From positions 186,001 to 250,000 of the forward strand of contig OZ361258.1 in the NCBI GenBank assembly GCA_977018835.1: DNA of 64,000 nucleotides, in the 5' to 3' direction. Within the stretch, counting starts at the first letter, position 1; each line of letters opens with the position of its first letter. The position numbers and the translations under genes are program-made. The notes beneath the pieces were generated by a model. That model searched no databases. It saw nothing but the letters and a program-made list of their open reading frames with translations, and was not told the origin of the DNA. Origin of the DNA: Minutocellus sp. GHC0000111 (lineage: Eukaryota). Shown here in pieces: positions 42,790 through 62,733 of the stretch.

Positions 42790-42847
42790 AGCGTCGAGTA
42801 ACAGACTATAGTTATGTACCTAGGTACATTTTAGAAACCTAATTCAG

Positions 42848-43042
42848 TGTTGATACCGTGGGATACGTACGTACGTATACATACGTACGGTACGTACGGT
42901 GATCAGACCACTGACCAGTGCCCTCTCCTGACCGTTGATCCATGGGCCAACGACATCTCCGATGGCCCATTTTTCATCTACGTAGGTCCTATTAACCTCT
43001 ACTAGCTATATCTATCTAGCTTAGCTTTAGGACCTCTTAGCA
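42848..43042 (+). repeat. 5' LTR (195 bp)
   Basis: Direct repeat of 48861-49056 with 4 substitutions and 1 indel; TACG repeats in its first 55 nt. Confidence 0.97.
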
Positions 43043-43343
43043 GACCTACGTGATACATCTTTTCCACCCGTGCTCGCCCCATTTCGGTTGGTTCGCACCT
43101 CACCGGTTTGTCTTGGGTTCTCACTCGTCACGCAAGAAAAACCGACACATCTTCAATCGGCCAAAACGACCGTTTCTTTCGACAACATTGGAACGACGAT
43201 CCAATCCCTTCCCCGAAAGTCCTGACCAGATCGACCCATCCAATCGATCACACTTCTCTGGATCGAACCTTCTGTCGATCACACGTCTCGCGCAGCAACA
43301 CCGCCGTGCTGCCTGTCTTCGCTGAGCTGACTGAAACACCAGC

Positions 43344-44627
43344 ATGAATCCCGACGCAGTTTTTGGCCAACCTCTCGGCGCAGCGCCGATTCTCCCCACC
43401 AAGTTAATCACACGTATGAATGACCCAGGACAACCTCCCCAACGCGAGCGTGTTGCCAAAGCGCTCAAGGAACTTCAACAAGCGGCGGCCAGCATTCCAG
43501 CAGGGTGCAATGATGACCACAACCTCGGCCATTTGGGCCTCGTCGTCAGCGATGCCGAACACACCACCAAAAGTAACGGCCGAACACATGTGCCTCCGGC
43601 AAATCCTGGCCCCAGCCCCACCACTCCCGCCGTGGCCAATCTAGACCAACGCGATCGTGCAATCCGGGGACATTACATCGAAAAGGGCCACTGCAACTTG
43701 TACGAGCAAGTCAACACGGCGCTCAAGAATCTCCTCCTCGACTCGATCGACGCCGTCTACATCAATCATCTCGAAGATGACATGCTCGGTTTCCAGCCAG
43801 TCACCACCCGCCAAATCATCGACAGCATTGCCGATCGCTACTTGAAATTCAACGAGACTCAGAAGGAGGAATTAGAGAAGCAGCTCGAGAAGCAGTGCGA
43901 CGGGGGACCCATCGACACCCACATCGCCATATTCAACAAAGTCTTCAAGGCGTTTGAAACGGCCGGCGAACCCTTCACCAACAAGCAAAAGGTCTCCAAG
44001 TTCTACCGCTCCGTGCGCAGGTTCTCATTGGCAAAGAAGGCATGCGAGGACTGGGACGACAGACCGGAGGCCGAACGCACGTGGGCCAACATGCAGTCGG
44101 ACTTCCGCGATTGGTATGATAAGAAGATGGCCAATACCACCACCGAAGCGGCAGGATATCATGGCGCGAATTTGGCCTCATCGGCCTCGGACGATCCATT
44201 TCTTTCTCGAGCCGATCTCCTTTTGGCTGACACCACCGAAGCCCTCAAGACCAACCAAGCCATGATGGCGAACCTCGCCAAAAAGAGCAACGAGAAGGAT
44301 GATACCATTGCCAAACTTCGCCAAGAAATAGCTTCACTCAAGGCCGAGAACCGCGTTCTACGTGAGGGACGCAACCATACTGGTGGCAGTGGAGGCTACC
44401 GCGGCGGTGGCCAGCAGAACGGCGCCGGCCACTTCCCAGGCCAAGGTCCTAACCTCAACCGCCAGGAGAAGCGGGAACTGCAGTCGATCCTCCCCAGAGG
44501 CCATTATTGCCACACGTGCGGCTATTCGTCCAACCACCCCAGCTTTGAATGCACTTGCAAAGGGCCCAACCACGTTGATAACGCCACCAAGTACAATCCT
44601 TGCGGTGGTAGCTCGCGTCGTAACTGA
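43344..44627 (+). CDS. gag: Copia gag
   Basis: HLGLVVSDAE, W...Q..F major-homology-like block, C-terminal YCHTCGY...H.S.EC....PNH...AT..N..GGS knuckle. Confidence 0.85.
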   Translation: MNPDAVFGQPLGAAPILPTKLITRMNDPGQPPQRERVAKALKELQQAAASIPAGCNDDHNLGHLGLVVSDAEHTTKSNGRTHVPPANPGPSPTTPAVANLDQRDRAIRGHYIEKGHCNLYEQVNTALKNLLLDSIDAVYINHLEDDMLGFQPVTTRQIIDSIADRYLKFNETQKEELEKQLEKQCDGGPIDTHIAIFNKVFKAFETAGEPFTNKQKVSKFYRSVRRFSLAKKACEDWDDRPEAERTWANMQSDFRDWYDKKMANTTTEAAGYHGANLASSASDDPFLSRADLLLADTTEALKTNQAMMANLAKKSNEKDDTIAKLRQEIASLKAENRVLREGRNHTGGSGGYRGGGQQNGAGHFPGQGPNLNRQEKRELQSILPRGHYCHTCGYSSNHPSFECTCKGPNHVDNATKYNPCGGSSRRN

Positions 44628-47600
44628 GCGGGAGGGACGGTGGATGTTAATCAGTATAAAATAGAGGACAGCATATCTGAATCCACCTCCTCCCCGCCTT
44701 CGTTAGCTTTTCTTACGTCAAAAAGCAAACCTCCAACTCAAGAGCCAATCGTCCTCGCAGCAGACACTGGAACGACGGGACATTTTGTCCAGAAGCCCCA
44801 ATGCCTATCGTGCGATGGCCCTATTTTCAACGTCCAACAGACAGCAATTCCTATCAGCGTCACCCTTCCGGATAATAGCACAATGACGAACACCCACGAG
44901 GCCACGCTTCGCCTCCCTGGGGTTTCCCCATCGGCTAGCAAGGCCTATATTTTCAATAATATGGCATCATCGCTCCTATCGATTGGGCAGCTGTGTGACG
45001 ATGGATGTGTTGCCACTTTCGACAAGGATTCGGTAGTCATCGCCAAGGACAATACCGTCATTTTGCAAGGTAAACGAGACCCCTCAACGAAATTGTGGAT
45101 GGTAGATCTTAATTGCTCGCCCACCATGTCGCCGCTCCCCGGCCCCAACGTCATCCAATATGCTGCCAACGCCGCAATTGCCCAGGAGACGGTTCCGGAA
45201 CGTGTAGCCTTTTTACATTGGTGCGCTGGCAGTCCTCAGCTATCTGCCTGGTGCAAAGCAATCGATGCGGGATTTTATAGATCTTGGCCAGGCCTCACAT
45301 CAAAGCTTGTACGTAAGCACATGCCACAGTCGATACCGATGATTAAAGGTCACTTAGACCAGCAGCGCAAGAACATCAGGTCGACCAAGCCCAAACGGTC
45401 GATGGCTACGCCAAAATCTCTCCCTGGGGTGGACGAAACCGAGCAGGATCTCCACCCGGCACAACACCAACAGCGCACCAACTATGTCTTTGCTGATTGT
45501 CATGACATAACGGGCCAGATCTTCTCAGATCAGCCCGGCCGTTTCTTGGTATCGTCTATTTCTGGCCACCAGTACATGGTGGTCGTCTATGACTATGACT
45601 CTAACAGCATCTTGGCCGAACCAATGAAAAGCCGATCGGGAACGGAAATGCGCCGAGCGTACCAAACTATTTTCGAATACCTCTCCAAGCGAGGATTTCG
45701 CCCAAAATTGCAACGATTGGATAATGAAGTGAGTCGAGAGCTGAAGGAGTTCATGGAAGAAAAGGATGTAGATTTTCAATTGACCCCAACGCACTCCCAC
45801 CGCCGAAATGCGGCCGAACGAGCCATTCGAACCTTTAAGAATCATTTCATTGCGATTCTCTGTGGTACCGATCCCGACTTTCCCCTCATCTTGTGGGATA
45901 AATTGCTGGAGCAGGCGGTAATGACCCTCAATTTCCTGAGAGCATCCCGAGTCAACCCTCGACTATCAGCGTACGAGCAACTCAATGGCGGCTTTGATTT
46001 CAATCGCACGCCTCTCGGCCCCCTCGGATGCAAGGTCATCTTTCACGAGATGCCCTCGGCACGCGGCTCTTGGTCCCCGCATGGCGTTGATGGGTACTAT
46101 GTCGGTCCAGCCATGGAACACTACCGGTGTTACAAGGTTTGGATTGAGGAAACTCGGGCGGAACGCACTGGTAACACACTCGTCTGGCTCCCCAAAATGA
46201 TTCCGGTACCCAAAACGTCGTCGGCCGATGCAGCAACAGTCGCAGCTCATGAACTCCTGCACGCTCTACAGAATCCACATCCAGCGGCACCCCTTGCTCC
46301 CCTTCGAGACGAGCATCGTCAAGCTTTAGAAAAGCTCTCCGAGATTTTCAACAGCGTGACCCCAGCAGAATCTGCCACCTCCGCCTCTGATGAGACGATG
46401 CAGACAACCGCAGCTCCGAGGGTGCCGGAGAACGATGACGAAACCCAACGATTCCGCCTCGGTGCCATCGTCGCCAAAGTGTTTGGAGATCGCAATTACA
46501 AGGGTAGAGTCGTTGCATTTGACAAGAAGCACAAGTACTACAAAATCAAATACGAGGACGACGACGTAGAAGAGATGAACGAGACTGAAGTAGGCCGTCA
46601 CCTTGTCTCCAACCCCAACGCTCCGTTACCTCAGCCCCAGCAACCTCCGAGGGTGGCAAAATCCTCCACATGTGATGCAGCCACCACTAAAAGCCGTCGA
46701 TCACGTCGATCCAACGCGCCACCTCGCTCGTCAGTTTCTTCCAACTACTACAATCCTTTGGCTGCAGTAGACGAGCCCAACGGCGACGATGATGATAATC
46801 ATGACGACGATGCAACCGTCGTAACATCCAATCAAAGTTCCAATGCCCCCACCTCCCGTCGGCAACGTAAACGCAAGTCTCCAACGATCGATACCACTCC
46901 AACATTGCCAGCTCCAGCAAAATCGACAAGCAAGTCCAAACCATCGACCGCCAAACCACCTCGACGACGATCATACCGTCAGCGAGGGTACATTCCACAT
47001 CGGAACCCTCCCCCACGGCCATCATCTCGTCGTAGTACCCACCACGTGGCCAACATGGCAGCTTTCTCGCCTTTACCAAACCTCCAACACTTTGCTAACG
47101 CCGTCGTCCATCCCGATACTGGTGCAATGCTTGAACACCGCGACCTCCTCAAAACGAACATGAGGGACCAATTCATTCAAGCAAACATCGATGAAATTGG
47201 ACGGCTAACGGACGGCCGAGTTGGAAACAGTGCTAGCATTCCCTCCAACACAATGGCTTTCGTCCACTGGTCCGAACTGCCTCGGGGGGAAAAGCCACAT
47301 GCCTCCGCATTGTCGCCGACTATCGCTCCCATAAACCAAATCCCAATCGAGTTTGATGGACTGCAGGAGGCGACAAAATTCATTACCCTGGTACAGTCTC
47401 GACCCCGACCGCTGAAATGTTGACTGCAATTTTTTTTTCAACAGCGTCATCTCTACAGACAACGCTCGTTTCATGGGAATTGATATCAGTGACTTCTATC
47501 TCAATAGCACCATGCCAGAGCCAGAATGGATGTGGGTGCCAGTAGCTCTCATCCCCGACGAAGTCATGGAAGCCTACGACCTCCACGACAAAGTAAAGAA

Positions 47601-48812
47601 TGGTCGAGTATTGGTCAGAATCGATGGCGGAATGTGTGGATTACCCCAGGCAGGGCGCCTAGCCTACGATCAACTTGTCAAGCATCTCAAACCCCATGGC
47701 TATTTCCCTTGCAAGCGTACTGCCGGCCTTTGGAGGCACAAAACCCGCCCAATTACCTTTTGCCTAACCGTTGACGATTTTGGAGTAAAGTATGTCGGGA
47801 AAGAGCATGCAGACCATCTCATTCAGGCCCTCAACTCCAAGCACAAGATCACTACCGATTGGGAAGGCCGACTTTATTGTGGTATTCAACTCGAGTGGAA
47901 CTACGAGGCCAAATGGGTGGATCTATCTATGCCTAACTACGTCAAGGAGATGCGCCACAAGTTCCAACACGACCGCCCCTCACGGCCCGAGCATGCGCCA
48001 TATCGATGGAATCGTCCGACGTGTGGCCCGGGACCCCAGCTGCCAGAACCGGAAGACGACTCTCACCACCACTCGACGCCAAAGGCATCAACGAAATTCA
48101 ACAGGTGGTGGGCAGCTCCTTGTACTATGGTCGAGCAATTGATTCAACAATTTTACCGGCGCTCAACAGCATCTCAGCGGAACAATCCAAAGCTACCGAG
48201 CGCACTCGACAAGATGCCAAGAAGCTTCTAGATTACCTTGCAACCCATCCCGACGCAGTCATTCGATGCGTCAAGTCAGACATGATCCTACATGCACATA
48301 GCGACGCCTCCTACTTGTCAGCCCCGAAATCAAGAAGCAAGCTCGGAGGGTACTTCTACCTAAGCTCCCGACCTAAGGACCCGCACCGCCAGCCTGACTC
48401 AAGTGATCCCATGCCACCAATGAATGGAGCCATCCTCGTCAATGCCAATATCATCAAGCATGTAATGTCCTCAGCCGCTGAAGCCGAATTGGGAGGATTA
48501 TTTTTCAACATGAAAGATGCAGCACCAATCCGGGCAGCACTAGAAGAAATGGGTCACCCGCAGCCCCCTGCTGCTATCGTCGTTGACAACTCTACAGCAT
48601 CTGGAATCGCCAATAAAACCGTCAAGCAAAGACGGTCTAAGGCTATGGACATGAGATTCTACTGGGTCCAAGATCGCACAGAGCAACGACAATTCCAGGG
48701 AGCACTGGCGGAAAGGAGCGCAAAATTTGGCCGATTATTTTACAAAGCACCATCCCGCCCGCTACCATGTCGACATGCGACCAGTCTCTACTTACATGTA
48801 GATTCCAATTAG
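44628..48812 (+). pseudogene. pol: Copia pol (protease, integrase, Tudor-like insert, RT, RNase H); RT/RH disrupted
   Basis: ADTGTTGH; SDQPGRF, RLDNE, NAAERAIRTFKNH; GIDISDFYL, G(Y>C)GLPQAG, TVDDFGVKY; SDASY, SAAEAE, DNSTA, DMRFYW. TGA at 47354-47356 and frameshifts near 47290, 47430, 48065 and 48700. Confidence 0.92.
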
Positions 48813-48860
48813 GACTCTACATGTAGATTCAATGGCACTAGTCATTGATCTGCGAGGGTG

Positions 48861-49056
48861 TGTTGATGCCGTGGGATGCGTACGTACGTGTACATACGCA
48901 CGGTACGTACGGTGATCAGACCACTGACTCAGTGCCCTCTCCTGACCGTTGATCCATGGGCCAACGACATCTCCGATGGCCCATTTTTCATCTACGTAGG
49001 TCCTATTAACCTCTACTAGCTATATCTATCTAGCTTAGCTTTAGGACCTCTTAGCA
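48861..49056 (+). repeat. 3' LTR (196 bp)
   Basis: Direct repeat of 42848-43042. Confidence 0.97.
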
Positions 49057-49391
49057 TTCAGACTACGACAACGCAGTTCCGAGCCGTGTGAATATTTTTG
49101 TGAGACCCATTTGGAGGAGGAGCGATTTCTCGTCTGTGGTCCGTCCCCAGCAACAAGCACATTCAATATGTTTATCTCAGGGCTTAGATTTCAGATGAAA
49201 TGAGCATATTGAGGGCTTTGATTTTTGGGAGACATGCTTATTTGGGTTGCATGGCAACAACTCATTTTTAGAGCGTTTTCACGTGACCGCCGACAATGCG
49301 CAATTTTTTGTGGCGACAAAAATGAAGCCACTAATTCGACCCCAAAAATCTCGGATCCAAACACAGTGACTTGTTAGTAAAGTACCCCGAG

Positions 49392-59807: not shown

Positions 59808-62733
59808 CTACTTGCGTTGTGGCGCCGGCCTCTCTGATTTGCTTGTATCTTTGCCTTTGAGACATACCTGATGTTGGATATGATATTTCAGGCCTTCTAC
59901 GCCAAACTGGCGGCCGCAGTGTTTGCACGTGACCTTGTTATTGACTATGGGAGGCTTCTCGACGGGTTTGGAAGCAGCTTTCGTCGAAGGGACGGTCCCT
60001 GGTTTAGGGGTTTTGCTTGTATCCATCCCCTTGAGACATACCTTATGCTTGAGATGGTACCTTAGACCCTCAACGCCGAATGCACGTCCGCAGTGCATGC
60101 ACTCGACCTGCTTATTGATGATTGTCGGAGCCGTTGTGACGGGCTTAGGATGCTTCTTTGAGATACTGGCCTTTTTTATTGATCCGGCCTTCTTCTTCGC
60201 TATGGCGGCGGGCTTCGCAGAAACCTTCATGGAGGCGACTACGTCATTCACTACATTCTTGCTTGATGTAGTCACAGTATTGCTTCGAGGAATCGGAATT
60301 GCAGCACCGACGCCGGCATCACCACGGAGACGCATGAAGTGCTCCTTTCGCAGATCTACGGTATCAACATGACTATCATCGTACAAAAGCGTTGCACGAG
60401 TAGAAGCACGAAGCGCCGTCACAGTCGCCGGATAGTACATCTTATCTAGATCCCAGTAAATGGCGACACGCGAGCCAAAGATCACCGCTGGACTTTTGGC
60501 CACCGCTTGAGCAGCCTTATATGCTTCCTCTTCCAGCTTAGCGAACCAAAATTCACCCTGCTTGACGAATGAAAACTCGTCCAAAGTCTTTCGTACCACC
60601 TGATAAGCAGCACCCGCCATTTCTTTGGTATAAAAAGTCCCAATGTACCTCTTCCTACCGCCGTACATAACCTGTGCCTCGAACTTTCCACTGTCTCGTC
60701 GCATGCGTACTCCTCGGGGCAAGGAATTGGCCACTGCCTGAGAATCAACAGCAGTCTGGTTCTTGGCTGACCCAGGTCCGACACCGGCGAAGGGTCGATC
60801 CAATGAAAAATTGTGATCGTCTGATTTTGCATCAGCATGATGATACATATTACTGATCGTTTCCATTGCATGCGCTCTTGTGTTTTCATAGACTTCGTTT
60901 AGATCGACATTCGGCCGATTCTTCTTGGCTTCGAGGCTACCTTTGATGCTCTCGTAAACATAAGACGCGGCGTGAGCCGAATCAAACGACCCAATATATT
61001 TTTCGATATTAGCGACTTTGATCCGAGCGGCGTACCTGCCAGATCTCTCTTGTACACCTCGAGGCAATGACGTCGTCTGTGCCGTATGCTTCGCTGGAGC
61101 CTTGGCCTTGGCGGCGGCTACCTTTGTAACGGCCTTTTGTCTTTGCAGGCTTGGCCTTTTCATTGGTCGCTTTTGTTGCCTCAGTTGCCTTGCCCTTGGT
61201 CTTGCTCACAATCGCAGAATAATCAAAACTGGCAGTTAGCTTCTGCAACACACCCGCCCTGGCCGATTCAAAAACGGCATTGATATCGACACCATCTGGC
61301 TGACCTAGTTTCAAGTCCACGGCCGAGCGGACGGACTTGTAGGCACAATTTGCCTGCTCGGCTGTATTGAACACTCCGATAAATTTTCGTACTCTGTTCA
61401 CGCTGACCTCGGCCCTATACTCGCCGGAAGACGTTAAGAATACGCCGTGAGATATTGGCACTGGTCGTGAGGGTTGCGATGGCATCGTCGGTGCATTTGT
61501 TGGTACATCCTGGGAATTGGTCTTTGTTTGCTCTGCCAACTCCTTCGCCTTGATTCTAGCGGCATCAAACACCACGTCCCGACCCTCTCGGTCCGTGGGA
61601 TCCAATCCAGAACTCGTCAGGATATTCTTCACATATCCGTACGCCCAGATCGCATGGTCCGCTTTATCAAACGTACCAATGTGACGGGAACGTCCAGCAA
61701 CCGTGATGGCGGCCTTGAATCTGGAATTGTGTTGAGAAATACCACGCCACTGGCCCTGACCCCAAGTTTTGGGTTTCGCTTTGGCCGTATCATGCGGCAC
61801 ATCGGCATCTTCTGTCGGCGCATGGTAGTTTTGGATATAATCCGACGGAGTAGATGCAGCGATGGCCTTGACCTGCTCGGAAACGATGAGACTCGATGGC
61901 TTGGTCCAGGTAACCTCGTTGGTTTGGATGTGGTAGTAGTATGGCTTTCCCGACGTGGCATCGATGGTTTCCCGCCAATCGCACTCGATTTCCTCGATCT
62001 TGGGTACAACTGACACACTTTCGGTTGCTTCGGCCACAGTCGATTCCTCATCCGACTTGCCACCCGCGTCCATCGACACCTTGCGCTTCGACTGTTGCTC
62101 CGAATCCTCACCCGACTTGCTACCCTTGTCCATCGAAACCTTGCGCTTCGACTGTTGCTCCACCTGATTCTCACCATGCGACTTGTTGTCCTCTTCATTA
62201 CGATCCATAGAACTTTTCCTCGCCCTATTGACCGCCGGTATCTCACTCTTCCGCTCAAACTCCATCATAATGTCCACCTTGGACCGCTTGGGGGCGCGCT
62301 TGCTCGACCGTCTGGCCGAGGCCAGCTCCTCGTTGTAGTGCCGGTTGCACTTGCCACTCTGGCTGGAGACGCCTTGCTTTGTGCAGCCGTCGACTGCGCA
62401 AATGGCCTTGGGGGGTTTGAACTTGGAATTGGAGCGCTTGGCGGAGCTAGTAGGGGTGACCAGGCCAGCGTCGGTAGTGCCGGTGGCGGAGGTCGGCGTA
62501 TCATCGTCTGTTGCATCAGATGTGGTCCCGTCAAATGCACGATGGAGATCGGAGGTCGGCGTGACTGTCGTGGCCTTGATCGGGGTCTCATCGGATGGGG
62601 CCGTAATGGGTGGGGAGGAAAAGATTGCAGCTGCCGCATCGGCCAGGGATGTGCGCTTGGCGGGGGTGAAGAGGAGGCGGTGGGTCCGCGGGGACGCCTC
62701 CGCATCTTCCGCCAGCATTTTTTCGTTCAGCAT
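59808..62733 (-). CDS. Multi-AP2 transcription factor with WW, Tudor-like and zinc-finger domains; frameshift at 61135-61138
   Basis: CAVDGC...C.RH; WW domain WRETIDATSGKPYYY..T.EVTWTKP; four AP2 repeats (RG......F.A.I......IG.F.T...A..AY); RVAIYW..D..YY...V; two C.HCGR.FGVEGL.YH..H.VC repeats. Confidence 0.85.
62044..62161. repeat. 60-bp tandem duplication in coding sequence (EQQSKRKVSMD x2)
   Basis: ccttgcgcttcgactgttgctcc recurs with a 60-nt period. Confidence 0.85.

Follow-up and report, generated by a model that had tools for sequence, protein, structure and literature searches.

Junction duplexes between the LTR and the primer-binding site point to probable self-primed reverse transcription in a diatom Copia lineage

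The window, a stretch of 64,000 nucleotides from Minutocellus sp. GHC0000111 (contig OZ361258.1), contains a complete but frameshifted 6.2-kb Ty1/Copia element of the diatom (CoDi) type. [quoted passage not shown] The established part is a duplex which begins at the first base after the LTR, comprises 9–14 bp and encloses a loop of 30–61 nt in almost every relative covered, and in which the letters vary from element to element while the pairing is kept. That the primer derives from the element, of whatever kind it may be, is very probable. The original prediction of tRNA-independent priming in a Copia lineage thus gains support from the presence of the junction duplex throughout the lineage and from its covariation.

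With its TG...CA LTR ends, target-site duplication, polypurine tract and the pol order PR-IN-RT-RH including an RVT_2-type RT, the element has the characters of Ty1/Copia. Its pol groups with diatom Copia proteins, which places it in the CoDi lineage. The named homologues among the best 120 of 1126 matches come from Phaeodactylum tricornutum, Fragilaria crotonensis and Fistulifera solaris (pol 46–51% identical; 50–51% for the P. tricornutum proteins), and no plant is found among the named homologues in these best 120; they indicate a diatom as host. The element is present in public sequencing runs, RNA runs among them. Its parts are as follows.

42843..42847, + strand: 5' target-site duplication TTCAG, identical to 49057–49061
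42848..43042, + strand: 5' LTR, 195 nt, TG...CA, direct repeat with the 3' LTR
42967..42978, + strand: candidate initiator-like sites CCA|TT and TCA|TC, proposed by match to the diatom motif of PMC4686930
42976..42988, + strand: self-primer arm, the predicted 3' portion of the primer; C42988, its last base, is paired to the first post-LTR base
42989..43042, + strand: 54-nt loop (putatively the rest of R, and U5), containing the octamer 43028–43035 discussed below as a competitor
43043..43054, + strand: primer-binding site (PBS), from sequence; complement of the LTR arm, no TGG
43344..44627, + strand: gag ORF, matched by a gag HMM built from relatives; 97% identical to relative P0005
44628..47423, + strand: pol part 1 (protease, integrase, Tudor domain, start of RT), frame break near 47420–47434
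47416..48231, + strand: RT core in a shifted frame (PF07727, E 3e-4, below the curated cut-off; tblastn with full-length P0020)
47937..48812, + strand: end of RT and RNase H in the third frame, break near 48060
48852..48860, + strand: polypurine tract GCGAGGG(TG), conserved in relatives
48861..49056, + strand: 3' LTR, 196 nt, followed by the target-site duplication and host DNA without a complement to the arm
49057..49061, + strand: 3' target-site duplication TTCAG, identical to 42843..42847

A single in-frame TGA at 44625–44627 divides gag from pol, both of which lie in one frame, so that readthrough of this codon would be required for the production of pol; gag stops before pol in many relatives too. 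The PF07727 matches stay below the curated cut-off here, yet this family is recorded for most homologues. Between integrase and RT (about 46461–46595 of the window) we found a PTM/DIR17-like Tudor domain (PF21743, E 3e-12), which is also present in the 77–97% identical relatives P0020–P0023, is absent from P0024 and is unrecorded for the other matches listed. By analogy with the chromodomain of chromoviruses it could be a chromatin-reading module for targeting. In the flanking DNA a glycosyltransferase family 90 gene (PF05686, 40351–42789) has its stop codon about 58 nt before the element, and two short intragenic repeats unrelated to the element are located at 59838–60118 (107 nt, spacing 174) and 62041–62160 (60 nt, tandem). 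No tRNA gene is present in the window.

The element resembles the CoDi elements described for P. tricornutum and Thalassiosira pseudonana (Maumus et al. 2009, PMC2806351) in its Copia order, in the length range of 5.2–8.1 kb with short TG...CA LTRs, and in having gag and pol parted by at most one stop. It differs from them in that its subfamily carries the Tudor domain between integrase and RT. Primer binding, tRNA and priming are nowhere mentioned in the main text of PMC2806351.

The 5' and 3' LTRs differ by four substitutions and one indel, all of them inside 42848–42916. U3 contains a palindromic run of the (TACG)n type at 42862–42900, and all four LTR-LTR substitutions, each either TA/TG or TA/CA, fall on TpA-rich steps of this kind. 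The same kind of change is frequent in comparison with the public runs, where at least 24 transitions are TA/TG or TA/CA (24 of the 35 among those listed, with about 21% expected; p about 1e-9); 10 of these 24 sites have TA in the window, and these 10 are unpolarised. Cys or His occupies 6 of 28 conserved Tyr positions in the window copy, whereas in 83 aligned relatives the median is 0 and the highest number 2, and this excess gives the direction as loss of TA. The bias resembles the TpA hypermutation of integrated viral DNA in Bigelowiella natans, as presented in bioRxiv 10.64898/2026.01.13.699255. Since the overall TA content is still host-like, the process would be at an early stage in this family.

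The 5' LTR ends with ...TTAGCA at 43042 and is immediately followed by GACCTACGTG (43043–43052). Inside the LTR, at 42979–42988, lies TACGTAGGTC, the reverse complement of which is GACCTACGTA. These two segments had been proposed to pair through nine Watson-Crick pairs and one U:G, which proved correct; in an alternative register U42979 is bulged and 42976–78 pair with 43052–54, giving 12 Watson-Crick pairs. The LTR boundary is independent of the stem because it is set by the 3' LTR (48861–49056) and the TTCAG duplication, and the second arm therefore begins at the first post-LTR base, where a PBS belongs. Within the loop CTA (42989–91) can pair with TAG (43038–40), leaving the terminal CA unpaired; this inner helix is weakly shared among relatives. 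A competing fold had also been suggested for the octamer TAGGACCT (43028–43035), which is indeed the reverse complement of 42984–42991, but its effect is negligible: in all 16 of 16 choices of start and end that were folded, the pairing probability was 0.99 for the nine core pairs of arm and PBS versus 0.0 for the TAGGACCT hairpin. We rejected this hairpin as thermodynamically unsupported whenever the PBS is present.

By chance a complement to the 9-mer is present in 105 of 200,000 shuffled LTRs, and at least 12 junction-anchored pairs were reached in none of 100 dinucleotide shuffles of the window leader. The fold of the region has a z of -2.74, with equal stability in 1 of 200 shuffles. A counter-argument is that another, G:U-rich stem ranks on top at this locus when the 500 nt preceding gag are scanned without constraint. 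No variant is listed at 43043–43056 in the assembled contigs of four public runs, and G43052, with the G:U or bulge that it entails, is consequently the state of the family; a copy-specific mutation or deletion at this base finds no support in these runs. For plant TAR elements self-priming has been predicted from an LTR complement of at least 10 bp to the region 0–5 nt after the LTR (PMC6317226). By this measure the window element is borderline, with nine contiguous Watson-Crick pairs and a G:U or bulged extension. As the signal of the single locus is modest, the strength of the case lies in the relatives.

Starting from an alignment of 83 pol proteins, a scan that covered part of a metagenome collection gave 617 confirmed matches, of which the best 70 loci were taken; viral contigs, scanned twice, yielded no relatives. 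The gag starts were placed by a gag HMM without reference to any stem. The final set comprises 43 leaders from 40 metagenome loci and the window. Dropped before counting were L014 and L063, where no sequence precedes gag, L008 and L020, which match gag in part, a duplicate unit of L031 and the head piece of L026, for which the tail was used instead, while four leaders (L062, L067, the L026 tail and L022b) were added by eye. When no positional rule was applied, the best stem started exactly at the junction, after CA or TA, in 35 of the 43 leaders. With the anchored rule, in which the partner lies 25–75 nt upstream (a range chosen after inspection of the data), a duplex of 9–14 bp was found in 38 of 43, each matched by at most 4 of 100 dinucleotide shuffles. 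The five failures are L045 and L051, with only 88 and 149 nt before gag, and L046, L048 and L022b, which share the geometry but have a mismatch or bulge early on. In seven leaders (five families, the window included) a second LTR copy followed by unrelated DNA confirms the LTR end at the same base, and 3' or solo LTR ends allow at most four contiguous pairs in 10 of 10 cases.

The LTR terminus is TA instead of CA in 11 of 34 elements. On four contigs (L059, L022, L027 and L011) different family members stand head to tail with one LTR between them, and the two LTRs on either side of a unit are unlike each other; the units are 74–80% identical where aligned, and the arrangement may reflect tandem insertion, recombination or misassembly.

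For the analysis of covariation, 34 distinct arm/PBS pairs were obtained from 41 leaders (L045 and L051 excluded, with hand-set anchors for L048 and L022b). In all 34 folds the mean probability of pairs 1–9 is 0.70–1.0. At positions 1–10, 97.4% of the positions are Watson-Crick paired, versus 15–29% when the register is slid by 1–3 nt. All four Watson-Crick types occur at positions 3, 4, 7 and 8, the mutual information reaches 1.5–1.8 bits at positions 3, 4, 6, 7 and 8 (as high in 0 of 2000 permutations), and not a single G:U pair occurs at positions 1–8 in the 34 elements. At least 10 of 11 Watson-Crick pairs are formed with the element's own arm in 29 of 34 cases, a complementarity of the length used to predict self-priming in TAR, versus 11 of 1122 with the arm of another element. 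Because permutations ignore kinship, the changes were counted on an RT-RNase H tree, in which the Fragilaria crotonensis and Fistulifera solaris proteins nest among the loci. Over positions 1–8 the tree requires 72 arm changes, 75 PBS changes and 75 changes of the joint pair state, so that arm and PBS changes coincide on the same branches. The tree was built by a quick search, has 29 leaders among its 35 rows and 9 weak inner branches out of 32, and omits L011, L043, the second unit of L059 and L022b, as well as L002, which has no linked RT; the link from RT to leader is uncertain for some rows, since the contigs include circular permutations or tandem units. The original prediction had named compensatory changes between LTR and PBS across related elements as its check, and the 34 pairs together with the tree answer it decisively. 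The duplex also shows sequence preferences, with G at PBS position 1 in 32 of 34, T at position 5 in 29 of 34 and often TAA at the end, which may be determinants of cleavage or initiation.

Where the RNA begins can be predicted from the diatom initiator-like motif TCAH+1W proposed in PMC4686930, where it is given for 67.9% of 80-nt upstream regions; being so common, it is informative by its position only. The strict motif gives a primer length of 13–16 nt in 23 of 34 elements, and of exactly 15 nt in 16. A loosened pattern, defined after inspection of the data, lies 13–16 nt before the arm end in 33 of 34, versus 0–4 at 15 shifted windows. The window element is the sole exception in the set, with candidates that give 12 or 19 nt: TCA|TC (predicted +1 at 42977, 12-nt primer) and CCA|TT (predicted +1 at 42970, 19-nt primer). 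The transcription start is thus predicted at 42977 or 42970, which is 2–9 nt from the earlier estimate of 42979. RNA contigs of run X7 start at 42961, and this position was discarded as a 5' end, as contigs cannot show RNA ends; it looks like an assembly branch point because it lies 30 bases before the variant at 42991. The motif before the arm also resembles what we take to be the anticodon loop of tRNA-Met. This reading was not adopted because the motif is outside the part that pairs with the PBS, and the initiator reading was kept.

The best explanation of these patterns is self-priming, which would proceed as follows. Transcription by Pol II would begin at the initiator-like motif, located some 15 nt ahead of the end of the arm (12 or 19 nt here), and the 5' end of the RNA would fold onto the PBS, usually with 1–4 unpaired 5' bases. 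By analogy with Tf1, the RNase H of the element would cut just after the arm (after C42988 here), leaving a 3'-OH paired to the first PBS base. RT would extend the freed 3'-OH through U5 and R, and the end of the cDNA would then be the end of the LTR. Plus-strand synthesis in its standard scheme uses the primer as template for the PBS; here this step would recopy the PBS from the arm, and one arm mutation would thereby rewrite its partner. Such recopying would explain both the joint change of arm and PBS and the near absence of G:U pairs and mismatches. The window duplex with its fixed G:U or bulge at position 10 fits strict recopying poorly, which suggests that recopying is imprecise or confined to the 3' part.

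Priming by a host tRNA or half-tRNA, with the LTR complement as a secondary or chance feature, would be the normal Copia route (PMC6317226), and it is against this expectation that the diversity of the PBSs has to be read. Among the 34 PBS 11-mers the mean difference is 5.5 positions, and no more than four are within one mismatch of any one of them, so that no single tRNA end or half-tRNA can serve the whole set. TGG occurs in the first 8 nt of only one of the 34 PBSs, and there it is inside a 14-bp self-duplex. In addition, no Rfam match was obtained in 42800–43400, a weak test for so short a stretch. Judged by this diversity on the tRNA side, the PBS complements a segment of the LTR and not a tRNA 3' end, and we regard tRNA priming as very improbable. 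Somewhat less improbable, though still a poor candidate, is a structural RNA element that serves packaging, dimerisation or translation control while priming takes another route. Such a case may exist in the fungal GalEa elements, Copia elements without a PBS for which PMC5445492 describes a conserved hairpin of unknown role. A structural helix would have no reason to start exactly after the LTR, as it does in 35 of 43 leaders, or to avoid G:U pairs so completely at positions 1–8; in GalEa, the hairpin is situated downstream of the LTR, for which its authors found no complement.

More weight, at a level we would still call unlikely, is given to a primer that derives from the element without being released in cis from the 5' end of the genomic RNA. 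It could be a short transcript, capped or abortive, or else be supplied by a co-packaged second RNA through its 5' end, or by an RNA 3' end stopping at the arm of the 3' LTR. All covariation results fit this equally well, and as no conserved Tf1-like three-duplex fold is apparent, the cutting step required for cis priming lacks an explanation. We sought a conserved inner or outer helix of the Tf1 type across the 34 elements and found none, the best inner register being paired in 13–23 of 34 per position. On the other hand, the loop is confined to 30–61 nt and the probability of the cis duplex is near 1, the constant spacing of the initiator-like motif links arm and 5' end, and the sole precedent that has been worked out is cleavage in cis. 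Self-priming in cis is accordingly the reading that we favour.

That precedent is Tf1, in which bases 1–11 are paired with the PBS and RNase H cleaves directly after them, between 11 and 12 (PMC7175516), and whose primer sits in a three-duplex 'pretzel' fold that is needed for Tf1 (PMC10085805). As described in these two sources, Tf1/Tf2 of Schizosaccharomyces pombe and the Tf1/sushi elements (Ty3/Gypsy chromoviruses that include Tj1, Tosmo and Tcn1) share with the diatom lineage a PBS by the 5' LTR that complements the LTR at the predicted RNA 5' end, the lack of a tRNA match and a duplex of about 11–14 bp. The diatom element does not belong to Tf1/sushi, however: these are Ty3/Gypsy elements, whereas it has the Copia order PR-IN-RT-RH and a Tudor domain, not a chromodomain, after the integrase. 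Tf1 has 11 fully paired bases, while the predicted diatom primer has 13–16 nt with 1–4 unpaired 5' bases; the flanking duplexes of the 'pretzel' are not conserved in the diatom lineage; and cleavage is proven for Tf1, whereas for the diatom elements we infer it by analogy.

Self-priming in Copia elements is not new in itself. The original prediction set it against the tRNA or half-tRNA primers normal in Copia, but it had been proposed earlier for Houba and Osr-1 (Capy 2005, cited in PMC6317226), and PMC6317226 predicts it for 89% of the 203 TAR Copia elements of plants studied there. The TAR elements, to which Houba and Osr-1 belong, are likewise Copia elements, with self-priming by prediction only, as far as PMC6317226 goes. 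In contrast to the diatom elements they form a land-plant lineage, mostly with a single gag-pol ORF, and the accessible part of PMC6317226 contains no analysis of covariation or start sites. The CoDi clades were grouped with Ty1 and GalEa in the other main branch of Copia (PMC5445492), and from this placement we infer an origin independent of TAR. GalEa shares with the diatom lineage the position in Copia branch 1 and the absence of a tRNA-type PBS, but its Conserved Hairpin Site consists of two conserved 9-mers downstream of the LTR (PMC5445492), whereas the diatom lineage has one arm inside the LTR and conserves the pairing, not the sequence. Hairpin priming has been speculated to be ancestral in PMC3601003. 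With somewhat better than even confidence, we think that a large and diverse diatom Copia lineage invented this priming independently of both Tf1/sushi and TAR, using a single duplex with a 13–16-nt primer and no three-duplex fold, with the PBS recopied in each cycle and primer and PBS drifting as a unit.

We found no report of self-priming in diatom Copia elements in a search that had most subscription journals, GyDB and Repbase outside its range. In the literature covered, self-primed reverse transcription has been worked out only for the Gypsy element Tf1, and what exists for Copia is a prediction from sequence, made in a single plant lineage; the claim for diatoms is backed by dozens of matched changes in arm and PBS. 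The CoDi elements Blackbeard and Surcouf are transcriptionally inducible in P. tricornutum, a transformable diatom, according to PMC2806351. In CoDi elements it thereby becomes testable if a Copia RT/RNase H cuts and extends the end of its own RNA, and what minimal structure it would need. PBS finders that seek tRNA matches will score elements of this kind as having no PBS, and the junction duplex provides an exact criterion for placing LTR ends and start sites in the genomes of diatoms. If self-priming is true, the lineage would no longer depend on the tRNA supply of its host and would escape silencing through tRNA fragments.
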